NCBI GenBank assembly: GCA_027488135.1 | Contig: JAIYCH010000092.1 | Span: forward strand, 1,680-33,679 | DNA length: 32,000 nt | Direction: 5' to 3' | DNA from: Saprospiraceae bacterium | Lineage (GTDB): Bacteria; Bacteroidota; Bacteroidia; Chitinophagales; Saprospiraceae | In this document: one piece after another, positions 151 to 10,680 of the stretch | Layout: each line of letters begins with the position of its first letter | How positions within the stretch are numbered: the stretch's first letter is position 1 | The notes under the pieces: model-generated | Databases searched by the model: none | What the model was told of the DNA's origin: nothing | The model's input: only the letters and a program-made list of their open reading frames with translations | Translations under genes and position numbers: made by a program

Positions 151-309
151 AAAGAACCAAGTCCTTTCATAGGCTAGCTCTTACCCCTGCCTTTGTGACC
201 ATCGAATAAAACCAGGTTATTCATCGGTTTTTTAACATTCATTTAGTATCTTTATTAAGTGAAAAAAGAGAAAATAATATTAGTAGAAATTGCCATCGAC
301 AAATTGACG
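151..309. repeat. Direct repeat copy 1 (159 bp), paired with 2224-2382
   Basis: Hand alignment at a constant offset of 2073 nt, with no gaps, gives 149/159 identical positions. Similarity ends abruptly on both sides: 141-150 versus 2214-2223 and 310-319 versus 2383-2392 are unrelated. Confidence 0.9.
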
Positions 310-336
310 CCTGGTAATTTCTTCAAAAAACTATAA
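259..336 (+). pseudogene. Truncated 5' stub of the GNAT-like gene (25 codons)
   Basis: GTG at 259 followed by VKKEKIILVEIAIDKLT. This matches the first 17 codons of the ORF starting at 2332 with one V/I difference. At 310 it diverges to PGNFFKKL, with a stop at 334-336. Confidence 0.55.
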
Positions 337-436
337 TCGAAAATTAGTATTAAATCATGCTTAATCCTTTTGTCAAATACTTCAGACTTGACTGTTGAAA
401 AAATAATCGTAATATTACTTAGATAAATTATTGTAA

Positions 437-2143
437 ATGGCGACTCTTCTTATAAATACTGGCACAGCTTCATATAACGACTTAATTTCAAACGGTCGAA
501 CTTTTAGTGTACCGCCTTACCAAAGAGATTATTCCTGGGAAAAAGAATATTGGGAGGACCTGTGGCTGGATATACTTGATTTACCGAAAGAAAAATACCA
601 TTATATGGGGTATTTAGTTTTTCAAGAAGATAGCACAAAGACAAAAACTTCATTTATCATTGATGGACAACAAAGATTTACCACATTGAGTATATTGTGC
701 CTTTCAGCCATCAGACTTTTAAAAGAGTGGGCCGACAGTGGCATTGATAAAGAAAATAATGAAATCCGAATGGTGAAACTTACGGAAAAATTTCTAGGAA
801 ATTTTTCTACATCAAAACTTACAATTACACCTAAATTGATACTTAATAAAAATAATGATGACTTTTATAAAAGTTATTTGTTAAACCATAGGAAACCTCC
901 AGTAGTTGGAAAACTTAAACCTAGTCAAAAAAGATTATGGGGTGCTTATGAGTATTTTTATCAAACTTTAAATACTAAAATATCTTCTAAATCTGGAACA
1001 GAACTAGCCACATTAATTGATGATGAAATTTCTAACGCACTCATTTTTACAACAATAAATGTCAGTGACGACCTCGATGCTTATAAAGTTTTTGAAACAT
1101 TAAATGCAAGAGGGGTTAAATTATCACCTTCTGATTTATTAAAGAATTATTTGTTTTCTAAAGCTTTTGAATCAGGCAGTTCTGAATTGGAAGAAACCGA
1201 AAGAAGATGGCAAAGCATAAACGACTTCTTAGGTAAATCAGACCTACCAACTTTTTTACGCCATTATTGGAATTCAAGATTTGAACTCGTAAGGATTTCG
1301 AATTTATACAGAGCAATTAAAAGTACCATTCAAACGCCAGAAAACGTTTTTGATTTACTTCATGAATTGGAACAGCTGGCCCCTATGTACACGGCTTTTG
1401 AAAACCCCGCTGACCCAATGTGGAATAAAGAACAGCGTTCATTTATACGTTCAATGAATCTTTTTGGTGTTTCAACCTGGTATTCTTTGATGCTTGTTGC
1501 TAAGCAAAAATTCCCAGAAGAGGAGTTTACAAAACTTTTACATGAGTTAAACGTGATAACATTCCGATATAATGTCATTTCTGATTTACATACCAATGAA
1601 ATCGAAGTTGTATTTAACAAGTTATCAATCAAAATTTTTTCAGGTGAAGTTTCAAAAGCTTCACAAGCATTTGAATTTTTAAAATCGATTTATGTACCAG
1701 ATGAAAGTTTTGCTCAAGCATTTTCAACGAAGCTTCTTAGCACCAAAAGAAACAAAAACCTTGTTAAGTACATTTTAGTGGAACTTGAAAATACAATTTC
1801 AGAGACAGCCAATCAATTCGAAGATGCATCATCTACCATCGAGCATATTCTTCCAGAAAATCCTTCTGCAGAATGGGAAACATCATTTTCAGCAGACGAA
1901 CAAGAGGATTATATTTTTTTAATAGGAAATTATACATTACTTGAGGATACCTTAAATAAGAAGGCAAGTGATAGGCTTTTCAATGAAAAATGCCTACTTT
2001 ACAAATCATCAAACTATAAGATGAGCAAGGATGAATTAAATTATACAGAATGGACACCAATTATTCTTCGTAAACATCAAGACAAGATGAGTAAATGGGC
2101 TTGTACTGCTTGGAAAAGTAATTACATTCAAAATAAATCCTAA
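437..2143 (+). CDS. DUF262/DUF1524 two-domain nuclease, GmrSD-family; putative type IV modification-dependent restriction enzyme
   Basis: 568-aa ORF. The N-terminal part carries DUF262 hallmarks (PPYQRDYSW and IIDGQQRFTTL, the DGQQR motif). The C-terminal part carries a DUF1524 His-Me/HNH-like pattern (IEHILPENP ... GNYTLLEDTLNKKASDRLFNEK). The gene appears AT-rich on a single 60-nt spot count (see the composition finding). Confidence 0.85.
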   Translation: MATLLINTGTASYNDLISNGRTFSVPPYQRDYSWEKEYWEDLWLDILDLPKEKYHYMGYLVFQEDSTKTKTSFIIDGQQRFTTLSILCLSAIRLLKEWADSGIDKENNEIRMVKLTEKFLGNFSTSKLTITPKLILNKNNDDFYKSYLLNHRKPPVVGKLKPSQKRLWGAYEYFYQTLNTKISSKSGTELATLIDDEISNALIFTTINVSDDLDAYKVFETLNARGVKLSPSDLLKNYLFSKAFESGSSELEETERRWQSINDFLGKSDLPTFLRHYWNSRFELVRISNLYRAIKSTIQTPENVFDLLHELEQLAPMYTAFENPADPMWNKEQRSFIRSMNLFGVSTWYSLMLVAKQKFPEEEFTKLLHELNVITFRYNVISDLHTNEIEVVFNKLSIKIFSGEVSKASQAFEFLKSIYVPDESFAQAFSTKLLSTKRNKNLVKYILVELENTISETANQFEDASSTIEHILPENPSAEWETSFSADEQEDYIFLIGNYTLLEDTLNKKASDRLFNEKCLLYKSSNYKMSKDELNYTEWTPIILRKHQDKMSKWACTAWKSNYIQNKS

Positions 2144-2223
2144 TAGCATACACAGAATGAAAACCATGTGTTGCACACTACAGCTAACTATGATACAACC
2201 CTTAATTTATACAGCTGATTTAT

Positions 2224-2382
2224 AAAGAACCAAGTCGTTTCGTAGGTCAGCTCTTACCCCTGCCTTTGTGATCATCGAATAAAACCAGGTTATTCATCGG
2301 TTTTTTGACATTCATTTCGTATATTTATCAAGTGAAAAAAGAGAAAATAATATTAATAGAAATTGCCATCGACAAATTGACG
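2224..2382. repeat. Direct repeat copy 2 (159 bp), paired with 151-309
   Basis: See copy 1. This copy covers 108 nt upstream of the GTG at 2332 plus the first 17 codons of the intact downstream ORF. Confidence 0.9.
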
Positions 2383-2856
2383 AACTCGATAGAAAATGTA
2401 GTTTCGGGCGACATCTTTAATACTGAAGTTATTCAACTTTTTAGCAAAGACACAAGACAAATAAATAAAACCGATTGGCAGTTTAATTGGCATGGACAAT
2501 TAAAACTTGCTGAAAGAGAAGTTTACAAGCTTGTTATTAAAGACAATGTAAAAATCATTCAAGGTCTTATAAGTTTGAGTGACAAAGGCGACCACATTTA
2601 CATGCACCTTATCGAAAGCGTAAAGTTCAATAAAGGCGAGACAAAAATTTATGCAGGAGTTCCTGGTAACTTAGTTGCGTTTGCTTGTAAAATTGCTTTT
2701 GCCAAAGGTTATGACGGTTATCTTGCTTTTGACGCTAAAACAGTTTTAATAAAACACTATCAGGAGACACTATACGCAACTCATTTTAGTGGGACAAAAA
2801 TGATTATTGAAACTCCAGCAGCTAACAGATTAATTAAACAATATTTTAAATCATAA
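2332..2856 (+). CDS. GNAT-fold (acetyltransferase-like) protein of unknown specificity
   Basis: The ORF track starts this ORF at a TTG at 2305. I prefer the in-frame GTG at 2332 (reading VKKEKIILIEIAIDKLTNSIEN), because the duplicated stub keeps that GTG while the TTG position is TTA in copy 1. The size (174 aa) fits the fold. YAGVPGNLVAFACKIAFAKGYDG resembles GNAT motif A (acetyl-CoA binding). The family assignment is from memory of similar Bacteroidota proteins and is not verified. Confidence 0.55.
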   Translation: MKKEKIILIEIAIDKLTNSIENVVSGDIFNTEVIQLFSKDTRQINKTDWQFNWHGQLKLAEREVYKLVIKDNVKIIQGLISLSDKGDHIYMHLIESVKFNKGETKIYAGVPGNLVAFACKIAFAKGYDGYLAFDAKTVLIKHYQETLYATHFSGTKMIIETPAANRLIKQYFKS

Positions 2857-2861
2857 ATAAA

Positions 2862-3029
2862 ATGGGACTAATCAGAGAACCTAAAAATGTTGACTTCACT
2901 GTTCTTGACAAACCTTGGACAGACGAAGAACTTAAAGAGTTTAGTGCATTTATCAAATTGCGTAAAGAACAACGAAAAAAAATACTAACCCAGTCAACGA
3001 CATCAACTCGTAAAAAAGTTGTTTCCTAA
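2862..3029 (+). CDS. Small hypothetical protein (55 aa) with a basic C-terminus, not in the supplied ORF track
   Basis: ATG at 2862, 5 nt after the GNAT-like stop. It reads MGLIREPKNVDFTVLDKPWTDEELKEFSAFIKLRKEQRKKILTQSTTSTRKKVVS, with TAA at 3027-3029. Same strand, tight spacing and non-repetitive composition support it. It falls below the 60-aa cutoff of the track. Confidence 0.45.
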   Translation: MGLIREPKNVDFTVLDKPWTDEELKEFSAFIKLRKEQRKKILTQSTTSTRKKVVS

Positions 3030-3169
3030 AAGCAACAACAGACCTTTGGTACAGAGTAGCACGGCGGCACGTTAGCAGTAAATGCAGAAAAATGACCTGC
3101 CAACAAGTTTGTAAAGTTCTAAATAAACAACAAATAAAAGTGCCAAATATACCCCGACGCTCAGTTTAA

Positions 3170-4831
3170 TTACTCCGATTTCAGCTCTCTCCTAAGTATT
3201 TTACCAACATTGGTTTTAGGTAATTCAACTTTAAAAACAATCTCCTTCGGTATTTTATAAGCCGTTAAATTTTCCCGGCAATACGCTAATAGCTCCTTTT
3301 TATTGGTTTCCTTGTTTTTTAATACGACAAAAGCCTTTACCGCTTCCCCCGATTTGCCGTCTTGCATACCTACCACCGCCGCTTCCAACACATCGGGATG
3401 AGAAACGAGCACTTCCTCAATTTCATTGGGATAAACATTAAAGCCCGAAACAAGGATCATGTCCTTTTTACGATCTACGATTCTGAAAAATCCGTCAGGT
3501 TCCATATATCCCAAATCACCGGTGGAAAACCAGCCATCTTTCAACGAAACCGCCGTTTCCTCTGGCTGATTATAATAACCTTTCATAATCTGAGGGCCCG
3601 AAGCCTGAATTTCCCCAATTTCTCCCGGTTCCAGCACTTTCCCATTATCGTCCACAATTCTCATGCTTGTAGAAGGTAATGGCAATCCGATACTTCCCAA
3701 TTTTCCGTTGCCATCAATGGGGTTGACAGACAAAGTGGGAGATGTTTCGGTCAGTCCATATCCCTGCGCCAGATAACAACCTGTTATTTTCTCCCAGGCA
3801 ACAGCTACCGGATTTTGAACCGCCATGCCACCTCCAACGGTAGCTTTTAACTTTGAAAAATCTAATTTCACAAAGTCATCTTGCTGTAACAAGGCATTAA
3901 ATAAGGTATTAATGCCCGTAATTAAACTGGGCGGATTATTTTTTATCGTTTTTATCAGTCCACTTATATCTCTTGGATTGGTAACCAATACAGAATGGGC
4001 GCCAAACTGTAACATAGATAAGCAATTTACCGTAAAAGCAAAAATATGATACAACGGTAAAGCGCATAACGCTACTTCAACTCCTTCCGACAGGAAAGGC
4101 TGCATGATGGCTCTATTTTGCAATACATTAGCTACCAAATTTCTATGCGTCAACATAGCTCCTTTTGACACCCCTGTAGTTCCCCCTGTGTATTGTAACA
4201 GCACGGTATCTTCAGGAAGTGGGTGAATATCAGGTTTTGGAAAATGGCTTCCTTCTGCCAATGCTTTTGAAAATGAAATGGCATTGGGCAAATGATATGC
4301 CGGCACCATTTTCTTCAGATTTTTAATGACAAAATCAACGATTTGTGCCTTTGGGAAACCCAGCATTTCGCCAATACTGGTTTTTATGACCAGTTCAATG
4401 GACGTTTCACCAATAATTTTTTGCAAGTTCGACGCAAAGTTTTCAACAATAACTATGGCCTTCGCCCCCGAATCGGCAAATTGATATTGCATTTCCCTGG
4501 GCGTGTACAGCGGATTGGTATTCACAACGACTAAACCGGCACGAATAGCACCAAATAAAGCAATGGGATATTGTAAAAGATTAGGCATCATGATGGCAAT
4601 CCGATCGCCCGGTTGAAGTCCTTTGCCAAGCAAAAAGGCAGCAAAATGATCGGCATATTTATTAACCTGATTAAAGGTTAATTTTTTATCCATGCAGGAA
4701 AAGGCTGTTTTATTTCCATAACGATTCAGCGCATCCGTAATAAGCTCATTCAGATTAGGAAATTCATCAGGATTAATATTAGCGGGAATGCCAGCAGGAT
4801 AATTCTTCAACCAAGGATGAGACTCTGTCAT
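3170..4831 (-). CDS. fadD: Long-chain-fatty-acid--CoA ligase (AMP-binding enzyme family)
   Basis: Motifs seen: AMP-binding YTGGTTGVSKGAMLTHRNL, GYGLTETSP, and TGDLGYMEPDGFFRIVDRKKDMI. I place the start at the ATG at 4831 (MTESHPWLKNYPAGIP) rather than at the 16-codon upstream extension of the track ORF. Confidence 0.9.
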   Translation of the reverse strand: MTESHPWLKNYPAGIPANINPDEFPNLNELITDALNRYGNKTAFSCMDKKLTFNQVNKYADHFAAFLLGKGLQPGDRIAIMMPNLLQYPIALFGAIRAGLVVVNTNPLYTPREMQYQFADSGAKAIVIVENFASNLQKIIGETSIELVIKTSIGEMLGFPKAQIVDFVIKNLKKMVPAYHLPNAISFSKALAEGSHFPKPDIHPLPEDTVLLQYTGGTTGVSKGAMLTHRNLVANVLQNRAIMQPFLSEGVEVALCALPLYHIFAFTVNCLSMLQFGAHSVLVTNPRDISGLIKTIKNNPPSLITGINTLFNALLQQDDFVKLDFSKLKATVGGGMAVQNPVAVAWEKITGCYLAQGYGLTETSPTLSVNPIDGNGKLGSIGLPLPSTSMRIVDDNGKVLEPGEIGEIQASGPQIMKGYYNQPEETAVSLKDGWFSTGDLGYMEPDGFFRIVDRKKDMILVSGFNVYPNEIEEVLVSHPDVLEAAVVGMQDGKSGEAVKAFVVLKNKETNKKELLAYCRENLTAYKIPKEIVFKVELPKTNVGKILRRELKSE

Positions 4832-4943
4832 GATAATAGGTATATGTGTTTCACAATATAAGCTATTGCATCGAACCATTCAAATAATTATTTTAACAAA
4901 GCCATCATTAGGGTGGATTTATTTTATACTATTGAACTTATTG

Positions 4944-4997
4944 AATGTATGTCTTCCGTAATCATTTATTACTATTTGATTACGATAGACATACATT
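4944..4997. repeat. Imperfect inverted repeat (21-nt arms, 12-nt spacer) between queD and fadD
   Basis: The 4944-4964 arm, aatgtatgtcttccgtaatca, is complementary to the 4977-4997 arm, tgattacgatagacatacatt, at 19 of 21 positions. The two mismatches are central. No U-tract follows on either strand. Confidence 0.7.
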
Positions 4998-5058
4998 TGT
5001 AAAATAAAATAACGAATGCTCTTATTTACAAATAACCTTCACTTATAAAAACAACAGG

Positions 5059-5466
5059 TTACGCTGGATATTCCACATAATTTCTTGGCGTTTCGTATAA
5101 ACGAACCACGATATCATATTTTGATTCCATTTTTGCTCTTAAAATTTGCCATATAACGACACAAATATTTTCAGCCGTCGGATTTAAATCCTTAAATTCC
5201 GGACATTCCAAATTAAGGTTTTTATGATCGAACCGATTCTCAATTTCTTCTTTAATGATATCTTTCAAGTATTTTAAGTCTATCAAATAGCCTGTTTGAG
5301 GATCGATTTCGCCCACAATTTTTACTTCCAGGTCATAATTATGCCCATGATAGTAAGGATTATTACACAAGCCAAACATTTTTATATTTTGCTCATCGGA
5401 CCAACCTGGATTATGTAACCGATGCGCCGCATTGAAATGAGCCTTTCTATAAGCAGCAATTTTCAT
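5059..5466 (-). CDS. queD: 6-carboxytetrahydropterin synthase / 6-pyruvoyl-tetrahydropterin synthase family protein
   Basis: 135 aa. Motifs FNAAHRLHNP and CNNPYYHGHNYDLEV are typical of the QueD/PTPS fold. The sequence alone does not tell me whether it acts in queuosine or pterin metabolism. Confidence 0.8.
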   Translation of the reverse strand: MKIAAYRKAHFNAAHRLHNPGWSDEQNIKMFGLCNNPYYHGHNYDLEVKIVGEIDPQTGYLIDLKYLKDIIKEEIENRFDHKNLNLECPEFKDLNPTAENICVVIWQILRAKMESKYDIVVRLYETPRNYVEYPA

Positions 5467-5501
5467 TTTATTTTGTTTGTGCTTTAAACAAGAAATAGCC
5501 C

Positions 5502-6308
5502 CTAAGGTTGCGGTGGAATAGTTAGGAAAAGGTTTTTTAGCTCTTGATTGATGTCCTTGTTTCCTGCAATCACTTTACCACCAAACCATTGTGTATTTCC
5601 TCCATTAAAATCGCAACTTGAACCTCCGGCTTCTTCGACGATCAATAAGCCCGCGGCGACATCCCAGGCATTGAGAGAGCCTTCAAAAAAACCATCGAAC
5701 CGACCGCAGGCAACGTAAACCAAATCGACCGCTGCAGCACCCCATCTTCTGATACCTCTACAATTCCGCAATAAATGGTTGAAAACAGGCAGATATACAT
5801 CAAAATGAGAAAAATCGATATAAGGAAAGCCTGTTGCTATTAAAGCGTCTTCCAGCTTATGGGTATTACTTACCCTAATTGGGTTATTGTTCATATATGC
5901 TCCACCACCTTTCCATGCCTTAAAAAGTTCGCCCCTGTTAACCTCTAAAACCACCCCTATTTGAATTTCATTGTTAAATGCCAGAGCAACACTGATAGCA
6001 AAACAGGGTAATTGGTGTAAAAAATTAGTCGTTCCATCTAAAGGATCAATAATCCAGGTATATGCTGAACTTGTTTTTTGTGCTTGATCTGTTTCTTCCT
6101 CGGTCATAAAAGAAGCACCTGGAAGAAGAGGCTTCAATCCCTTCACCAACATTTGTTCTGCTGTCTTATCCACATAGCTGACCAGGCTATTTTTATCTTT
6201 TGTTTCAATCTGCTCATTAGCCACTTTTCCTAATTCCGCAGCAATAAAGATACCAGTCTCTCTTACTAATCCGGCTACCTGCGTGGTCAGCCATTCCAAA
6301 TCGATCAT
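5502..6308 (-). CDS. suhB: Inositol monophosphatase family protein
   Basis: IMPase motifs WIIDPLDGTTNF and WDVAAG are present. The start overlaps the hpt stop by 4 nt. Confidence 0.85.
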   Translation of the reverse strand: MIDLEWLTTQVAGLVRETGIFIAAELGKVANEQIETKDKNSLVSYVDKTAEQMLVKGLKPLLPGASFMTEEETDQAQKTSSAYTWIIDPLDGTTNFLHQLPCFAISVALAFNNEIQIGVVLEVNRGELFKAWKGGGAYMNNNPIRVSNTHKLEDALIATGFPYIDFSHFDVYLPVFNHLLRNCRGIRRWGAAAVDLVYVACGRFDGFFEGSLNAWDVAAGLLIVEEAGGSSCDFNGGNTQWFGGKVIAGNKDINQELKNLFLTIPPQP

Positions 6309-6862
6309 ATTATTGGTTTTTCTGTCAGTTGATATAGATGACTTAATTGTCGCCCTTGTTCATTATAATCGAGTCCGTATCCTATGACAAATTCATTGGT
6401 TATAGAAAAGCAATGATGATCAAGTTGAATTGGATATTTGATTGCCAGAGGTTTATAAAGTAAAGCAACGGAAGTAACCGACAGAACTTTAGCTTCATGA
6501 AGCATATCATATAAAAAGGCCAGCGTTTTCCCTGAATCAACAATATCTTCAACCAATAAAACGGTTCTGCCCTCAAAGGAAATATCAGGTGGCAGCACCA
6601 CATCCATTTTTCCTGAAGAGACCGTTCCCTCATAGGACTTCATTCTTAAAAAGGCAATTTCACAAGGTATATTCATCGCCCTGACCAGATCTGCCATAAA
6701 AATGAAACAACCATTTAGGACACCAATAAGGATTGGATTCTTGCCATTGAGTTCCTTTCCAAGGAGCATACCCATTTCATTTACCCTAATTTTTATAACC
6801 TCTTCAGAAATAATTGGTTTAAACCAAAGATTCCCCACTTCAACTACGTTTTCGTCCAGCAT
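6305..6862 (-). CDS. hpt: Hypoxanthine phosphoribosyltransferase
   Basis: PRPP-binding motif VLLVEDIVDSGKTL, a size of 185 aa, and a GYGLDYNE tail. Confidence 0.9.
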   Translation of the reverse strand: MLDENVVEVGNLWFKPIISEEVIKIRVNEMGMLLGKELNGKNPILIGVLNGCFIFMADLVRAMNIPCEIAFLRMKSYEGTVSSGKMDVVLPPDISFEGRTVLLVEDIVDSGKTLAFLYDMLHEAKVLSVTSVALLYKPLAIKYPIQLDHHCFSITNEFVIGYGLDYNEQGRQLSHLYQLTEKPII

Positions 6863-6871
6863 AAATTTGTT

Positions 6872-8269
6872 TTAAAGGCCAAATTTATCCATTAAAAATA
6901 TAAAACTGGCCATGGAAGCCGAACCTAATTTTAATTCTCTGGGATTTACCGCTTCGAGGACATCAGTGGCCGTATGGTGATAATCGAAATACCTTTGTGA
7001 ATCAGGTTCAAAACCAACCAAAAATACGCCCTGAGGTTTTAATGGCCCAATATCCGCTCCAGAACCACCTGGTTTTAGAAATAAGCCATACGATTCCAAT
7101 AAAAAGAAGGACTCATTTAGCCTTTTTAACTGTTTTTCAAAATCAGGATTTGAACTTTCACAAGTAAATCCACGGGGGGTAAATCCACCTCTATCAGATT
7201 CTATCGCTGCAAAATGCTTTTCTCTTGCTAATAACGCTTGTGCTGCATATTCCCGTCCCCCGCGCAAGCCATTTTCTTCATTCATAAATAATACACATCG
7301 GATGGTTCTTTTAGGTTTGTAACCTATTTTCTTAAAAAGATGTAAAACCTCCATAGACTGAACGCAACCGGTACCATCGTCATGCGCTCCCTCACCGACG
7401 TCCCATGAATCGAGGTGTCCGCTAACTACAATGACCTGATCTGGATATTCTGACCCTTTTATTTCCCCAATAACATTATAGGATAATTTTTCGGAGAGCA
7501 TGCGACTTGTATTTCTGATATAGACATTAACGCTTTCTTTTTTGAGTAAATCACTTAAAATTTCAGCATCTAAGGTACTGATACCCAAGGCTGGAATTTG
7601 TGGAATACCCGGTTGGTAACTCATTCCGCCTGTATGAGGATGAGCGTCAAGCTGGTTAGTTAAAGAACGCACTAAAACGGCAGCTGCTCCATATTTTGCT
7701 GCTCTGGCTGCACCTGAACCCCGTTGATCTGCAGCTGAACCATAAGCATTAAAAGTATTAAGCGGTCTTGGATCCATCGGTCTGTTAAAAAAGACAATTT
7801 TATTGGCAATTTGGCTGCTTCCTAATTGGTCTAACTCATCCAGACTCTTCACTTCCAGCACTTCAGCAAGGAGTCCTGCCGGACCAGTTCCAATGGAATT
7901 TCCTAACGAAAGGGCACGTAAAGTAATGTCACCTTGACTTTTTGACCCTACGATACGAACGACCTCTTTCTCTCCTCTGTCCCAGTGAGGAACCATAACA
8001 GGTTGAAGCCAAACACTATCTAAAGAAAGCGTATCCAGTATTTGTCTCGTATAATTTACAGCGGCTGCGGCCTGAGGGCTACCACTTATGCGGGCACCGA
8101 TTTTTTTACAAAGGAAGGTCAACCATTCATACGAAACATCACTTGTCAAAGCTTCGTCATATATTTTCCGGATAAAAAAAGCGTCTTCATTATTTGCTTT
8201 TGGTGCCTGAGCATTTAGCCCCAAAAAGGAAATAATTAAAAATAAAAATAGTGTCCCTATTTTTTTCAT
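6872..8269 (-). CDS. Secreted M28-family metallopeptidase (aminopeptidase-like)
   Basis: N-terminal signal peptide MKKIGTLFLFLIISFLGLNAQA, plus a Zn-ligand context (SGHLDSWDVGEGAHDDGTG and FMNEENGLRG) typical of M28. Confidence 0.8.
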   Translation of the reverse strand: MKKIGTLFLFLIISFLGLNAQAPKANNEDAFFIRKIYDEALTSDVSYEWLTFLCKKIGARISGSPQAAAAVNYTRQILDTLSLDSVWLQPVMVPHWDRGEKEVVRIVGSKSQGDITLRALSLGNSIGTGPAGLLAEVLEVKSLDELDQLGSSQIANKIVFFNRPMDPRPLNTFNAYGSAADQRGSGAARAAKYGAAAVLVRSLTNQLDAHPHTGGMSYQPGIPQIPALGISTLDAEILSDLLKKESVNVYIRNTSRMLSEKLSYNVIGEIKGSEYPDQVIVVSGHLDSWDVGEGAHDDGTGCVQSMEVLHLFKKIGYKPKRTIRCVLFMNEENGLRGGREYAAQALLAREKHFAAIESDRGGFTPRGFTCESSNPDFEKQLKRLNESFFLLESYGLFLKPGGSGADIGPLKPQGVFLVGFEPDSQRYFDYHHTATDVLEAVNPRELKLGSASMASFIFLMDKFGL

Positions 8270-8574
8270 AATCTATCGTTTTAATGTCTAAATTAAAAAA
8301 TAAAAAGTTTTTACTTTTTATGATAAAAAAAATAATTTCTTAGTTCCTTCAATATAAAAATTTTAATTTGGAAAAAAAGGTATTTAAAAACAATTCTATG
8401 GTAATCCCATTTTGAAAAAATCGTCCCTATTCTTTTGTCCTTAATAAAATTTGTAAAAATTCAATCAAATTACTATTTTTATGAAATATTTTGAAAATTA
8501 ACATTATTTATTTGCTACTATCACAATGAGCAATAAAATAATTTAAAATAATTTGGTTTTATTTGGTTAGGGCG

Positions 8575-8612
8575 GAGGTAGTGCATTTTTTTTAGCGCTG
8601 CCTCTTTTTTTT
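8575..8612 (+). terminator. Terminator-like hairpin plus T8, plus-strand orientation, with no upstream plus-strand ORF
   Basis: gaggtagtgc (8575-8584) pairs with gcgctgcctc (8595-8604) over 10 bp, including two G-U pairs. The loop is 10 nt and is followed by tttttttt (8605-8612). On the minus strand the two wobble pairs become C-A mismatches and no T-tract follows. Confidence 0.35.
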
Positions 8613-8724
8613 GAAAAAAAATACAAATACTAAGTAAGTTTAATATATATTTACGTCATCAAGAATTGCTCCCGTTTTCAGCATAAAAAATTTTATAGAT
8701 TACCCTTTACACTGTTGAACACGG

Positions 8725-8751
8725 GGAGATAGTATTACTATCTCCTTTTTT
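8725..8751. terminator. Perfect palindromic hairpin overlapping the stop codon of the minus-strand lipoprotein gene; T6 tract only on the plus strand
   Basis: ggagatagta (8725-8734) and tactatctcc (8736-8745) are exact reverse complements, followed by tttttt (8746-8751). On the minus strand the hairpin sits at the gene end but is followed by ccgtgttcaac. Confidence 0.4.
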
Positions 8752-9295
8752 GTTTAAAAAAGCCTTCTACCATTATTTCGTCTTTATTTCCCATAAAATA
8801 CTGCTCATTCTTTATAACATATCCATTTTTAGGCCTGTATATAAGGTGTTGAACATTTTTAGTAATTGGACTACCGTTAAACAATCTGATGTCAATAAAT
8901 ACCACTTTATTTTGATTATCCACTTGAACACCTAACTTTCTGGTTGTCATTTTTTCATCATTAGCTGTATAGGTAATTTTATATAACTTACCTGAACTGA
9001 AAATGGAATCCACCCTATATTTATCAGAAAGCGCCGGCCTATTAATGTCAGCTTTTATAAATACATCCAGCTCTGATGCAAAATTTGGCTGCACTATATA
9101 TAAGGTATCCGTTTCTCCGTTCAACGATAAAATTTTAGTTAAAGATATATTATCATTTACCATCCATTTTTTCTCCTCTTCCATAAAATCTATCATAGAA
9201 AAAAAAGAAGAAGGTAGTTGGCTGTTCACTTCTCCCTTTTGGGAGCATGAAAAAACAAGCGTAAAAAGGAAGGAAATAAGGATTGAGCGAAACAT
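8738..9295 (-). CDS. Lipoprotein of unknown function
   Basis: The internal Met at 9295 gives MFRSILISFLFTLVFSCSQKGE, a signal peptide with a lipobox Cys. The 17-codon upstream extension in the track looks spurious. I recognise no family motif. Confidence 0.6.
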   Translation of the reverse strand: MFRSILISFLFTLVFSCSQKGEVNSQLPSSFFSMIDFMEEEKKWMVNDNISLTKILSLNGETDTLYIVQPNFASELDVFIKADINRPALSDKYRVDSIFSSGKLYKITYTANDEKMTTRKLGVQVDNQNKVVFIDIRLFNGSPITKNVQHLIYRPKNGYVIKNEQYFMGNKDEIMVEGFFKQKRR

Positions 9296-9438
9296 TTTTT
9301 TAACAAATATAGGTAAGTCCATCGGGGATGCAAGGACAAAATACATTTATCTATCTAAGGAATGACCCTATTTATCTAATTTAAGTGCGGTACCAACCTC
9401 CTTATTATTATATTGCGTTCGAATTAATTAGTAAATAA

Positions 9439-10680
9439 ATGAATCTACTTGAAAATATTCGTTTAGCCCTCCGGTCTATCCGAGCAAATTTATTGCGTGC
9501 TATTTTAACCTTGATGATTATCGCTTTTGGCATCATGGCTTTAGTAGGTATTTTAACAGCTATTGACAGCACCATTTATTCGTTGAACGATAGTTTTTCA
9601 GATCTTGGTGCCAATGTTTTTGAAATTGACCCGCTATCATCTGACGGAGCAAGAGGAAGAAGAGGGGGTTTTGTTGAAAAAAGAGGTAAAATTTTTACTT
9701 ACAGAGAAGCCGTTGATTTTAAAGAGCGTTTTATCTTCCCTGCGGAAACCTCTATTTCTTTTAACTGCACAGGCAGTGCTGCCGTAGGTTTTGGTGAAAC
9801 TAAAACCAATCCCAACGTAGCTATTTATGCCGTAAATGAAAATTATCTGGAGGCAAAAGGATTTGAAGTTGCCGTAGGTCGAAATTTTTCAGCATCAGAA
9901 GCATTGGACGGTTTACCCATTGGAGTCATTGGCGCTGATATCGTGAACCTACTTTTCGACGGGAAACCAGAAAAAGCCTATAATCAACTCATTTCTATAG
10001 GAAAACTGAAAATAAAAGTAATAGGTATTCTGGCATCTAAAGGTTCTGCCATGGGTGGGAATGAAGACCGTCGAGTGATTATTCCTTTAGCAACAGGTAA
10101 AAAATATTACGCTAATGCCAATTCAAATTATAAAATTTTAGTGGCTGTTAATGAACCTACTCAAATCGACTATGGTATTGCCGTTGCCACAGGTTTATTA
10201 AGGAATATAAGAAAACTTCGCACCTGGGATGATAATGATTTTGAGATTCAAAGAAGCGACAGTTTAATTGATGTAATTAAAGAAAATACCCTTTATTTGA
10301 GATTGGCCGCTGTGGTCATTGGGGTAATCACCCTTCTTGGTGCTGCCATTGGCCTCATGAATATCATGTTGGTTTCAGTTACAGAACGTACCCGGGAAGT
10401 TGGTATTTCAAAAGCTTTAGGAGCAACCAAACGGGTCATTCTCATCCAATTTTTGACAGAAGCCATATTTATCAGTTTAATGGGTGGCATTGTGGGTATT
10501 ATTTTCGGTGTGCTCATTGGAAATAGCGTTACTTTTTTAATGGGTGGAAGTTTTTTAATTCCCTGGCTTTGGATTGGTGTGGCAGTCTTTACCTGTACGT
10601 TAGTTGGTTTATTCTCAGGCTTATATCCCGCTATGAAGGCAGCAGAATTAGATCCGATAGAATCTCTTCGTTATGAATAA
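9439..10680 (+). CDS. ABC transporter permease, MacB/FtsX-like (periplasmic core domain plus FtsX 4-TM domain)
   Basis: The N-terminus [37 protein letters not shown] and the C-terminal block [27 protein letters not shown] ... [18 protein letters not shown] are typical of MacB/LolE-type permeases. No ATPase gene is adjacent. Confidence 0.85.

Follow-up and report, generated by a model that had tools for sequence, protein, structure and literature searches.

A predicted GmrSD-type restriction gene between 159-bp direct repeats is a presence/absence polymorphism at a Saprospiraceae locus

Type IV restriction enzymes of the GmrSD and BrxU type act on modified DNA and are built from the Pfam domains PF03235 and PF07510. 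We analyzed a predicted gene of this family in a 32,000-nt stretch of the genome of a Saprospiraceae bacterium (GenBank assembly GCA_027488135.1, contig JAIYCH010000092.1, positions 1,680 to 33,679 of the forward strand; hereafter the window, with positions counted from its first letter), in which the gene is bracketed by two direct copies of a 159-bp unit and the second copy runs into an intact gene (ORF174) followed by a small partner (ORF55). Several described systems bear on such an arrangement. In Escherichia coli, single crossovers between circular molecules and the chromosome (Campbell-type integration) have been described with duplicated homologous lacZ segments of 109-950 bp (PMC3240628), and homology-facilitated illegitimate recombination, with displacement of modules next to an "anchor," has been proposed for effector-immunity arrays of type VI secretion systems (T6SS) and for Rhs arrays (PMC5361080). 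Integron cassettes and CALINs, which are attC clusters without an integrase, include cassette-borne defence systems (PMC8618304; bioRxiv 10.1101/2024.07.02.601686), and toxin-antitoxin (TA) cassettes stabilise integron arrays (PMC13108822); Bacteroidota are already known to carry both integrons and such integrase-less clusters. Recombinase-associated arrays, rAID-1, have been described in Bacteroidales (Ross et al., bioRxiv 10.1101/471110).

A repeat search identified a single repeat family in the 32 kb, formed by positions 151-309 and 2224-2382, each 159 nt long, identical at 149/159 positions (94%) without gaps and spaced by 2073 nt. Pairwise alignment of the copies with their flanks showed that the similarity begins and ends abruptly, and a 21-mer taken from the unit occurred twice in the window against 0 expected occurrences. 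Neither the 32 kb nor an extension of its left flank contained a second high-identity direct repeat of at least 35 nt. The 10 mismatches between the copies lie at positions 164, 169, 174, 175, 199, 234, 245, 250, 256, and 283, the last being the only one within the 51 coding nt, where G or A encodes Val or Ile at codon 9; the other 9 lie upstream. Both copies contain a GTG (259 in copy 1, 2332 in copy 2) and the same 17 codons up to the split at 310. An earlier note on this DNA had described the pair from the letters alone, including the offset, the sharp ends, the single V/I change, the distribution of the mismatches, and the stop at 334-336, and all of these were reproduced by the repeat search, the alignment, and the sequence. 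Its statement that the 1914 bp between the copies carry a single gene also held, with one real gene, encoding GmrSD_N and GmrSD_C domains, at 437-2143. The principal features are as follows.

151..309, plus strand: repeat copy 1, consisting of 13 nt, a degenerate boundary-like core (GTCCTTTCAT), the ORF174 leader, GTG at 259, and 17 codons; a putative dead stub of an ORF174 cassette.
259..336, plus strand: truncated reading frame of 25 aa, with GTG, 17 ORF174 codons, 8 unrelated codons, and TAA at 334-336.
437..2143, plus strand: GmrSD-family gene, with a DUF262/ParB-like N domain containing DGQQR and a DUF1524 His-Me-finger C domain.
2224..2382, plus strand: repeat copy 2, a 159-nt unit running into intact ORF174 and differing from copy 1 at 8-10/159 positions.
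2332..2856, plus strand: ORF174, member of a family conserved in Bacteroidota, with over 7,400 homologues.
2862..3029, plus strand: ORF55, the constant partner of ORF174 in 73/92 related loci, with no family match.

Exact-protein look-ups and pattern scans recovered both occupied and empty alleles of this locus. The two-copy arrangement was present, 97-99.5% identical to the window, in at least 11 independent contigs from three assembly pipelines, including NCBI metagenome-assembled genome (MAG) contigs L001, L026, and L031, ENA scaffolds L029, L030, L033, and L121-L123, and JGI contigs L036 and L037. Five contigs lacked the GmrSD gene and had one unit followed by the intact downstream gene (L124, L129, L126, L003, and L004), which is the empty site that the earlier note had proposed to look for. 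An ENA scaffold of 40,305 bp (L124) and a JGI contig of 17,993 bp (L129) are shorter than the occupied contigs by about 2,073 bp and have the gene order HipA, HTH_5, AHSA1, one unit, ORF174, ORF55, and AMP-binding gene, while L126 belongs to a more divergent lineage, 10.7% from the window over the 150 nt left of the unit. The GmrSD gene is a presence/absence (gain/loss) polymorphism in the population. An exact 34-mer scan gave no match in the GTDB species representatives and two contigs only in the JGI metagenomes, both with the occupied allele, and neither the 159-bp unit nor ORF174 was found in viral contigs. Every public match of the unit falls at this locus, with two copies in the window, and the unit is not the dispersed element that the earlier note had named as a way to be wrong.

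The remaining two empty contigs, L003 and L004, are Logan assemblies from two different run series whose flanks equal the window exactly, including a G at position 2 that is otherwise found in the window only. Their single unit has the copy-1 states at five left sites (164-199) and the copy-2 states at five right sites (234-283), and this pattern, 1111122222, places a crossover inside a stretch that is identical in both copies.

200..233, no strand: identical stretch of copy 1, 34 nt that are the same in both copies and that hold the L003/L004 hybrid crossover.
2273..2306, no strand: identical stretch of copy 2, the partner of 200-233; Logan unitigs L017 and L018 break at 204 and 2302.

The hybrid has an A at 283, a base shared solely with the second copies in the window, L001, and L002, and G is the state at this site in copy 2 of most occupied strains, in copy 1, and in the outgroups. 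Because of this A and the window-specific flanks, the hybrid would be a deletion that arose in the window's own sublineage. Read from Logan contigs only, the hybrid unit bears the mark of a deletion by homologous recombination between the two copies and is the kind of junction that the earlier note had asked for. Of its further proposal, that RecA-mediated pop-out makes the defence gene a presence/absence polymorphism, the polymorphism stands with the empty alleles and the hybrid, and the dependence on RecA is presumed.

Assembly artefact as the source of the repeat or of the empty alleles is barely credible. Logan contigs are built at k=31 and the identical stretch is 34 nt long, so a graph artefact was considered; a hybrid path could be built without a hybrid read if both GmrSD junction k-mers were missing. 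However, the hybrid contig was obtained from two run series, and both junction k-mers would have to be missing twice independently; where a sample has the occupied allele, the expected breaks of the Logan unitigs at 204 and 2302 are seen. The recurrence of the two-copy allele across contigs and pipelines, together with the empty alleles on the 40-kb and 18-kb ENA and JGI contigs, excludes an artefact as the source of the repeat and, taken as a class, of the empty alleles.

We then compared the units of the different alleles. The single unit of L124 and L129 differs from copy 1 of the occupied contigs L029 and L030 at 0/159 positions, including a private 211C, and from copy 2 at 8-9/159 (5-6%), with 1-2/474 differences in the adjoining ORF174 body and 0/173 in ORF55. 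These unit distances identify copy 1 as the probable resident allele and copy 2 as a putative imported, diverged allele, which most likely came in with GmrSD. Diversity among the occupied strains is 0.9-1.2% in the GmrSD segment versus 2.6-3.6% in the adjacent AMP-binding gene, and because of this lower diversity the insertion appears young relative to strain divergence. The same order of flank, unit, insert, unit, and gene could be produced in situ by a long target duplication, with a 1,914-bp GmrSD fragment entering at breaks staggered by 159 nt, or between two sister chromosomes, and the copies, identical at first, diverging later. Such an origin is very improbable: it needs 8-9 substitutions in copy 2 and none in copy 1, next to 474 nt of ORF174 with only 1-2, and it leaves unexplained that GmrSD at an unrelated locus (L021, below) also precedes a leader of the window's ORF174 subtype, there with a more complete attC. 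An attC-like 3' half left of copy 1, which would speak for this origin, was marginal (11/300 shuffles versus 22/300 for a control) and was not used.

The absence of mobility genes reported in the earlier note was upheld by domain and tRNA scans. No integrase or transposase domain was identified in any large ORF of the window, no Phage_integrase domain was present in the called genes of the 5 kb on its left, the window scans returned no tRNA and no Rfam family, and no inverted repeats were found at the ends of the insert. The hallmarks of a transposon, a transposase and a short target-site duplication, are lacking here, the duplication being 159 bp long and 6% diverged. A scan for sigma-70 promoters and terminators and for the Bacteroidota -33/-7 pattern gave nothing above chance at the unit, and no promoter is claimed.

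The nature of the unit became apparent from related loci. Homologues of ORF174-ORF55 occur mostly in Chitinophagales and other Bacteroidota, in flanks unrelated to those of the window, and sequence of the ORF174 5' region recurs within the locus in 23/79 genome loci, most clearly (e.g., L039, L056, L096, L102, and L105) from the upstream non-coding region and again downstream at kb-scale spacing. In L105, L015, and L038, the recurring elements have attC architecture with CATAAC-type and GTTATG-type end cores, and the arms of the sites in these three loci and in L021 are complementary with z of 2.8-4.8. Such attC-like sites separate short co-directional ORFs in the relatives, one of which encodes a WapI-type immunity protein. 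Homology of the ORF174 module in the relatives starts at a GTTATGC/GTTAGGG (GTTAKGC-type) core located 90-95 nt upstream of the GTG, the place at which an integron cassette is expected to start, and because of this left boundary and the attC-like sites on either side, ORF174-ORF55 is a mobile cassette in these relatives. A degenerate core is present at cassette-boundary distance in both copies of the window (GTCGTTTCGT in copy 2 and GTCCTTTCAT in copy 1), the repeat starting 13 nt further left. By these sequence comparisons, the 159-bp unit is the predicted 5' end of the mobile ORF174 + ORF55 cassette, made up of the 13 nt, a leader of about 95 nt, and 17 codons.

Like integrons and CALINs, then, the relatives have ORF174-ORF55 between attC-like sites, GmrSD followed by attC in L021, low GC, co-directional genes, and variable contexts. 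The window differs in that it has no intact attC or IntI, the unit is not an attC, and the ends of the unit are off the canonical G|TT crossover point. None of the attC candidates in the window (2178-2246, 60-173, and 3030-3080) had complementary arms (z from -0.8 to -0.1), and these regions fold no better than shuffled sequence. With no attC and no IntI, the window locus is not a member of either class. The earlier note had also suggested a hotspot at which cassettes share a common 5' anchor; this holds for arrays of the relatives but not literally here, where only ORF174-type sequence follows the unit.

Two of the related arrays were observed at greater length. Positions 1200-12300 of L105 form a long array of short co-directional ORFs between attC sites of about 140 nt (CATAAC ... 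GTTATGC) with complementary arms, including a WapI-like protein, and the ORF174-ORF55 cassette, and no integrase was found within its 12.5 kb. In L096 (positions 1187-9770), from an uncultured freshwater Bacteroidetes MAG, we identified a 544-aa tyrosine recombinase (Phage_integrase + SAM_4), a Fic protein, and five or six copies of a 130-nt intergenic repeat between small co-directional genes that include ORF174-ORF55. In architecture, L096 is rAID-1-like, with its 5' tyrosine recombinase, its co-directional low-GC genes, and its 130-nt repeats. The window shares the low-GC co-directional genes but has no recombinase, its only repeat is the 159-bp pair, and its cargo is a restriction-type defence gene in place of the T6SS immunity genes of rAID-1; it does not belong to this class.

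The other contexts of the GmrSD gene showed what travels with it, and four segments of the insert are needed for the comparison.

310..332, no strand: linker of 23 nt between copy 1 and the conserved GmrSD segment, not present in GmrSD loci elsewhere.
333..436, plus strand: GmrSD upstream region, which moves with the gene.
2144..2188, plus strand: GmrSD 3' untranslated segment, shared with L021, ending in AGCTAAC, the homologous counterpart of the R''-type core TGTTAAC at the start of the L021 attC.
2189..2223, no strand: filler of 35 nt in place of the L021 attC body, without arm complementarity or homology elsewhere.

Close relatives of GmrSD (88-95% aa identity) stand alone in unrelated housekeeping contexts. 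Their left homology end falls at about 325-333 in three unrelated contexts (the window, L021-24, and L118), and their right ends differ (2133-2188). No direct repeats were found around GmrSD in L021, L023, and L025, the gene has no terminal repeats, and it is therefore not itself a repeat-generating element. In L021-24, the housekeeping context is an unrelated one and GmrSD is 94% identical at the nt level across 333-2188, and the homology of L021 stops at ...CTGTTAAC, the window counterpart being ...CAGCTAAC. L021 has a complete attC after GmrSD (arm complementarity z=4.8), homologous to the attC that follows ORF55 in L015 and L038; the AGCTAAC at the end of 2188 is the only relic of an L021-type attC in the window. 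After this attC, L021 continues with about 95 nt of ORF174-cassette leader, first L015-like and then with the window-specific TTATTCATYGGTTTTTT.AC.TTC (score 36), and 0/500 shuffles reached either alignment score. The ORF174 gene itself is absent after the leader. GmrSD followed by an ORF174 leader thus occurs at two unrelated chromosomal sites, and the adjacency would therefore predate both loci. On this sequence evidence, GmrSD is likely to travel with a stub of a neighbouring ORF174, and no GmrSD upstream of a complete ORF174 was found in 80 other genomes. Directly upstream of GmrSD in L021 (positions 5733-5897), we noted a 54-aa ORF that ends where the homology with the window starts and was possibly truncated by insertion of GmrSD; it presumably resembles the N-terminal part of RhuM-family proteins.

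These observations are best accommodated, we think with moderate confidence, by a fragment of a decayed cassette array, carrying GmrSD and an ORF174 stub, that integrated by homology into a resident ORF174 cassette and can be deleted again. GmrSD would once have been a second cassette directly upstream of an ORF174 cassette in an integron-type array. A fragment with GmrSD and the first 159 bp of its neighbour's ORF174 cassette would have entered a strain that already had ORF174-ORF55 at this place, and integration would have proceeded through the shared sequence by a single crossover of the circularised fragment or, alternatively, by one homologous exchange in ORF174 and one illegitimate join at 309|310. 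In the product, a dead stub (copy 1) would remain of the resident 5' end, followed by GmrSD and by the incoming 5' end fused to the resident body (copy 2). The attC sites would have decayed, with no site-specific enzyme encoded nearby, and the repeats would now recombine homologously, removing GmrSD precisely and leaving a single unit that is either hybrid or copy-1-like. A single crossover with a circular molecule gives this order of resident unit, insert, imported unit, and resident body; what we infer is that the intermediate was circular or one-ended, in which direction the event first ran, and that RecA is needed. Recombination into the 5' end of a resident gene had been proposed in the earlier note; the recombination stands, but the gene was probably not dropped in by itself, since the L021 locus suggests that it arrived already attached to a diverged 5' end.

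The likeness to Campbell-type integration is close, with an insert between direct repeats of the homologous segment, one copy of resident and one of incoming type, and reversal by recombination of the repeats that gives hybrid units. We found bracketing repeats, divergence confined to the repeat, and single-unit reversal with an internal crossover, the last in Logan contigs only. The differences are that the event is natural, that it concerns a chromosomal defence gene and not a plasmid, that the circle is supposed, and that its closing joint at 309|310 has no recognisable motif. The anchor model also has a conserved stretch beside variable cargo that acts as a homology anchor and stubs of displaced genes that remain; it differs in that T6SS and Rhs modules are displaced downstream and orphans accumulate, whereas here the resident gene is restored and a 159-bp stub is left upstream.

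Several findings weigh against integration of an array fragment by homology. No donor with an intact GmrSD-attC-ORF174 order and without copy 1 was found, L021 having the leader stub only. The joint at 309|310 shows no recognisable microhomology or site, and both variants of the integration need one illegitimate joint. Upstream of the predicted G|TT boundary, 13 nt are common to both copies, of which cassette logic predicts none. The L124/L129 allele may be the ancestral recipient or a pop-out with a crossover in the right-hand interval 251-309, and it does not fix the direction of the event. The L126 unit lies about as far from each copy as the copies lie from each other (9-10/159), which fits an old duplication too, and k=31 Logan contigs are the sole source of the hybrid allele. 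A deletion that arose independently in L122 also ends at 150|151 and hints at a preferred break or recombination site more than at a plain end of homology: in this occupied scaffold (L122:1280-1300, corresponding to window 150|151), 1,327 bp are deleted and the 3' end of the HTH_5 gene is joined to 151 with AAA microhomology.

If 150|151, and perhaps 309|310, were crossover points of a recombinase encoded elsewhere, acting on an unrecognised recombination site at the left end of the ORF174 module, both insertion and excision of the segment would be enzymatic and site-specific. Three sequences abut AAAGAACCAAGTC at 150|151 within a 3-nt microhomology, namely, the flank native to this place, the GmrSD segment's end, and the L122 HTH_5 end; a small hairpin spans the junction (z=-2.4), and related arrays carry tyrosine recombinases, as does L096 with its 544-aa protein near the 130-nt intergenic repeats. 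The hybrid crossover, however, is internal (200-233) and not at the repeat ends, which is typical of homologous exchange, and the 3-nt microhomology of the L122 junction is typical of illegitimate deletion. The unit ends share no motif, neither 150|151 nor 309|310 has a G|TTRRRY, and the window encodes no recombinase; we consider a site-specific event quite improbable.

Duplicated cassettes are ordinary in integron arrays, and the arrangement could also have arisen inside an array, from two paralogous ORF174-ORF55 cassettes around GmrSD of which the upstream one was deleted from codon 18 to near its attC end, every empty allele being a later pop-out. Tandem ORF174-type cassettes do exist (in L073, copies of 76% and 56% are spaced by 930 nt), L109 has ORF174 fragments next to full copies, the GmrSD|ORF174 adjacency would be ancestral, and the near equidistance of copy 1, copy 2, and the L126 unit agrees with such an origin. 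Nevertheless, copy 1 is the same as the single-copy allele in strains without GmrSD, even in a private SNP, and the outgroup-like L126 is empty, so that at least 3 independent pop-outs would be required. The 23-nt linker is unlike the attC 3' end of the ORF174-ORF55 type (a match at 310-332 was not significant and was rejected, with 279/500 shuffles), and no intact attC or integrase is present in the window or in the 5 kb to its left. An origin within the array is, on balance, unlikely, and integration by homology is the better reading.

The locus is a natural case, at nucleotide resolution, of a single phage-defence gene being gained and lost with no dedicated mobility enzyme. Both processes, integration by a single crossover and deletion between repeats, are textbook knowledge, and the value lies in a well-resolved case, not in a new principle; defence systems as integron cassettes are likewise already documented (bioRxiv 10.1101/2024.07.02.601686). 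Decayed integron-type arrays could keep exchanging defence cargo after the loss of integrase and attC, and the locus offers a PCR-testable system for the turnover of defence genes in uncultured freshwater Bacteroidota. We hold it to be clearly unlikely, as a broader possibility, that ORF174-ORF55 is a portable homology anchor that spreads adjoining defence genes without an integrase, or else that 150|151 is an unrecognised site of an unlinked recombinase. Were the anchor true, defence genes would spread among Bacteroidota via the ORF174 5' end and be shed again through the resulting repeats.

The GmrSD translation matches Pfam GmrSD_N over residues 14-240 (1.4e-36) and GmrSD_C over residues 421-554 (5e-23) in a single polypeptide and contains the motifs IIDGQQRF and STIEHILPEN; against PADLOC, it matches HEC-06 (1.2e-193) and also a model named Orf5. 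By its sequence, the gene has the two-domain architecture of type IV restriction enzymes and is a predicted defence gene. This architecture, the full-length domain matches, and the HEC-06 match are shared with the GmrSD and BrxU enzymes; a difference is that no BREX, Dnd, or Ssp partner genes are present here.

For ORF174, searches of Pfam, NCBIfam-type sequence scans, and searches of PDB sequences gave no match. An AlphaFold2 (AF2) model from a shallow alignment was unusable (pLDDT 49), and a deeper alignment was used, which gave pLDDT 79.5 and pTM 0.78. All top matches of this model in a Foldseek search of the PDB were GNAT proteins (E down to 5e-5, TM up to 0.61), and the best full-length matches were the tRNA-acetylating toxins TacT3, AtaT, and KacT (TM 0.54-0.61, E about 1e-4). 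ORF174 is predicted to have a GNAT fold, and the label "GNAT-like" used in the earlier note is borne out by fold (AF2 and Foldseek) and not by sequence. As modelled, the fold and the two-gene cassette with its own leader resemble the GNAT TA toxins (TacT, AtaT, and KacT). The differences are a sequence identity of 12-15% and a small partner that lies downstream of ORF174, not upstream, without a ribbon-helix-helix (RHH) or helix-turn-helix (HTH) match; family scans of ORF55 gave no match.

Frameshifted or apparently disrupted forms of ORF174 were observed in several occupied strains as fragments of 100, 84, and 126 aa (L121:3471-3773, L122:3741-3995, and L125:1890-2270, respectively) with identical ORF55, and the 84-aa form is present on 9-16 contigs. 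Disrupted ORF174 beside intact ORF55 is compatible with a dispensable or a toxic ORF174. A TA role of ORF174-ORF55 is only a lead, suggested by the own leader, by the commonness of TA cassettes in integron arrays, and by the frameshifted ORF174 beside intact ORF55. Between lineages with flanks 4-11% apart (L126 versus the window), ORF174-ORF55 (2332-3029) is only 0-0.8% divergent, and this near-invariance suggests a recent spread of the cassette across lineages and not purifying selection alone. After ORF55, positions 3014-3141 occur as two haplotypes with about 16 differing sites per 130 nt (about 12%), adjacent to the nearly invariant ORF174-ORF55. A match of 3102-3120 to the reverse complement of ORF174 coding positions 2519-2537 (17/19, E of about 0.02-0.1) was judged to be chance.

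The GC content of positions 151-3100 is 30-35% versus 40-44% in the flanking core genes. Right of 3170, the window is Bacteroidota core chromosome, encoding an AMP-dependent ligase, PTPS, Pol I, Pol III delta', BamA, UppS, RsgA, and an SprB/type IX secretion system (T9SS) protein. To the left, no ORF exceeds 84 aa over some 1.2 kb upstream of copy 1 (L001:4366-5300, window -781 to 150), and this decayed-looking stretch of L001 follows an AHSA1 gene that is maybe truncated (121 aa). Within it, 31 nt at window -389 to -359 are matched, inverted, by a site that L021 has 540 nt upstream of its GmrSD. Further left of the window, L001:123-3564 is a 3.4-kb segment with HTH and HipA genes that is absent in L031 and L036 and has no long flanking direct repeat; it is a second presence/absence polymorphism in the variable region. 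On the other side, at about 4867-4939, the AMP-binding gene and PTPS of L124 and L126 are separated by additional genes that the window lacks, for a MerR regulator and a short-chain dehydrogenase, and this indel adjoins a palindrome at 4944-4997, an inverted repeat with 21-nt arms.

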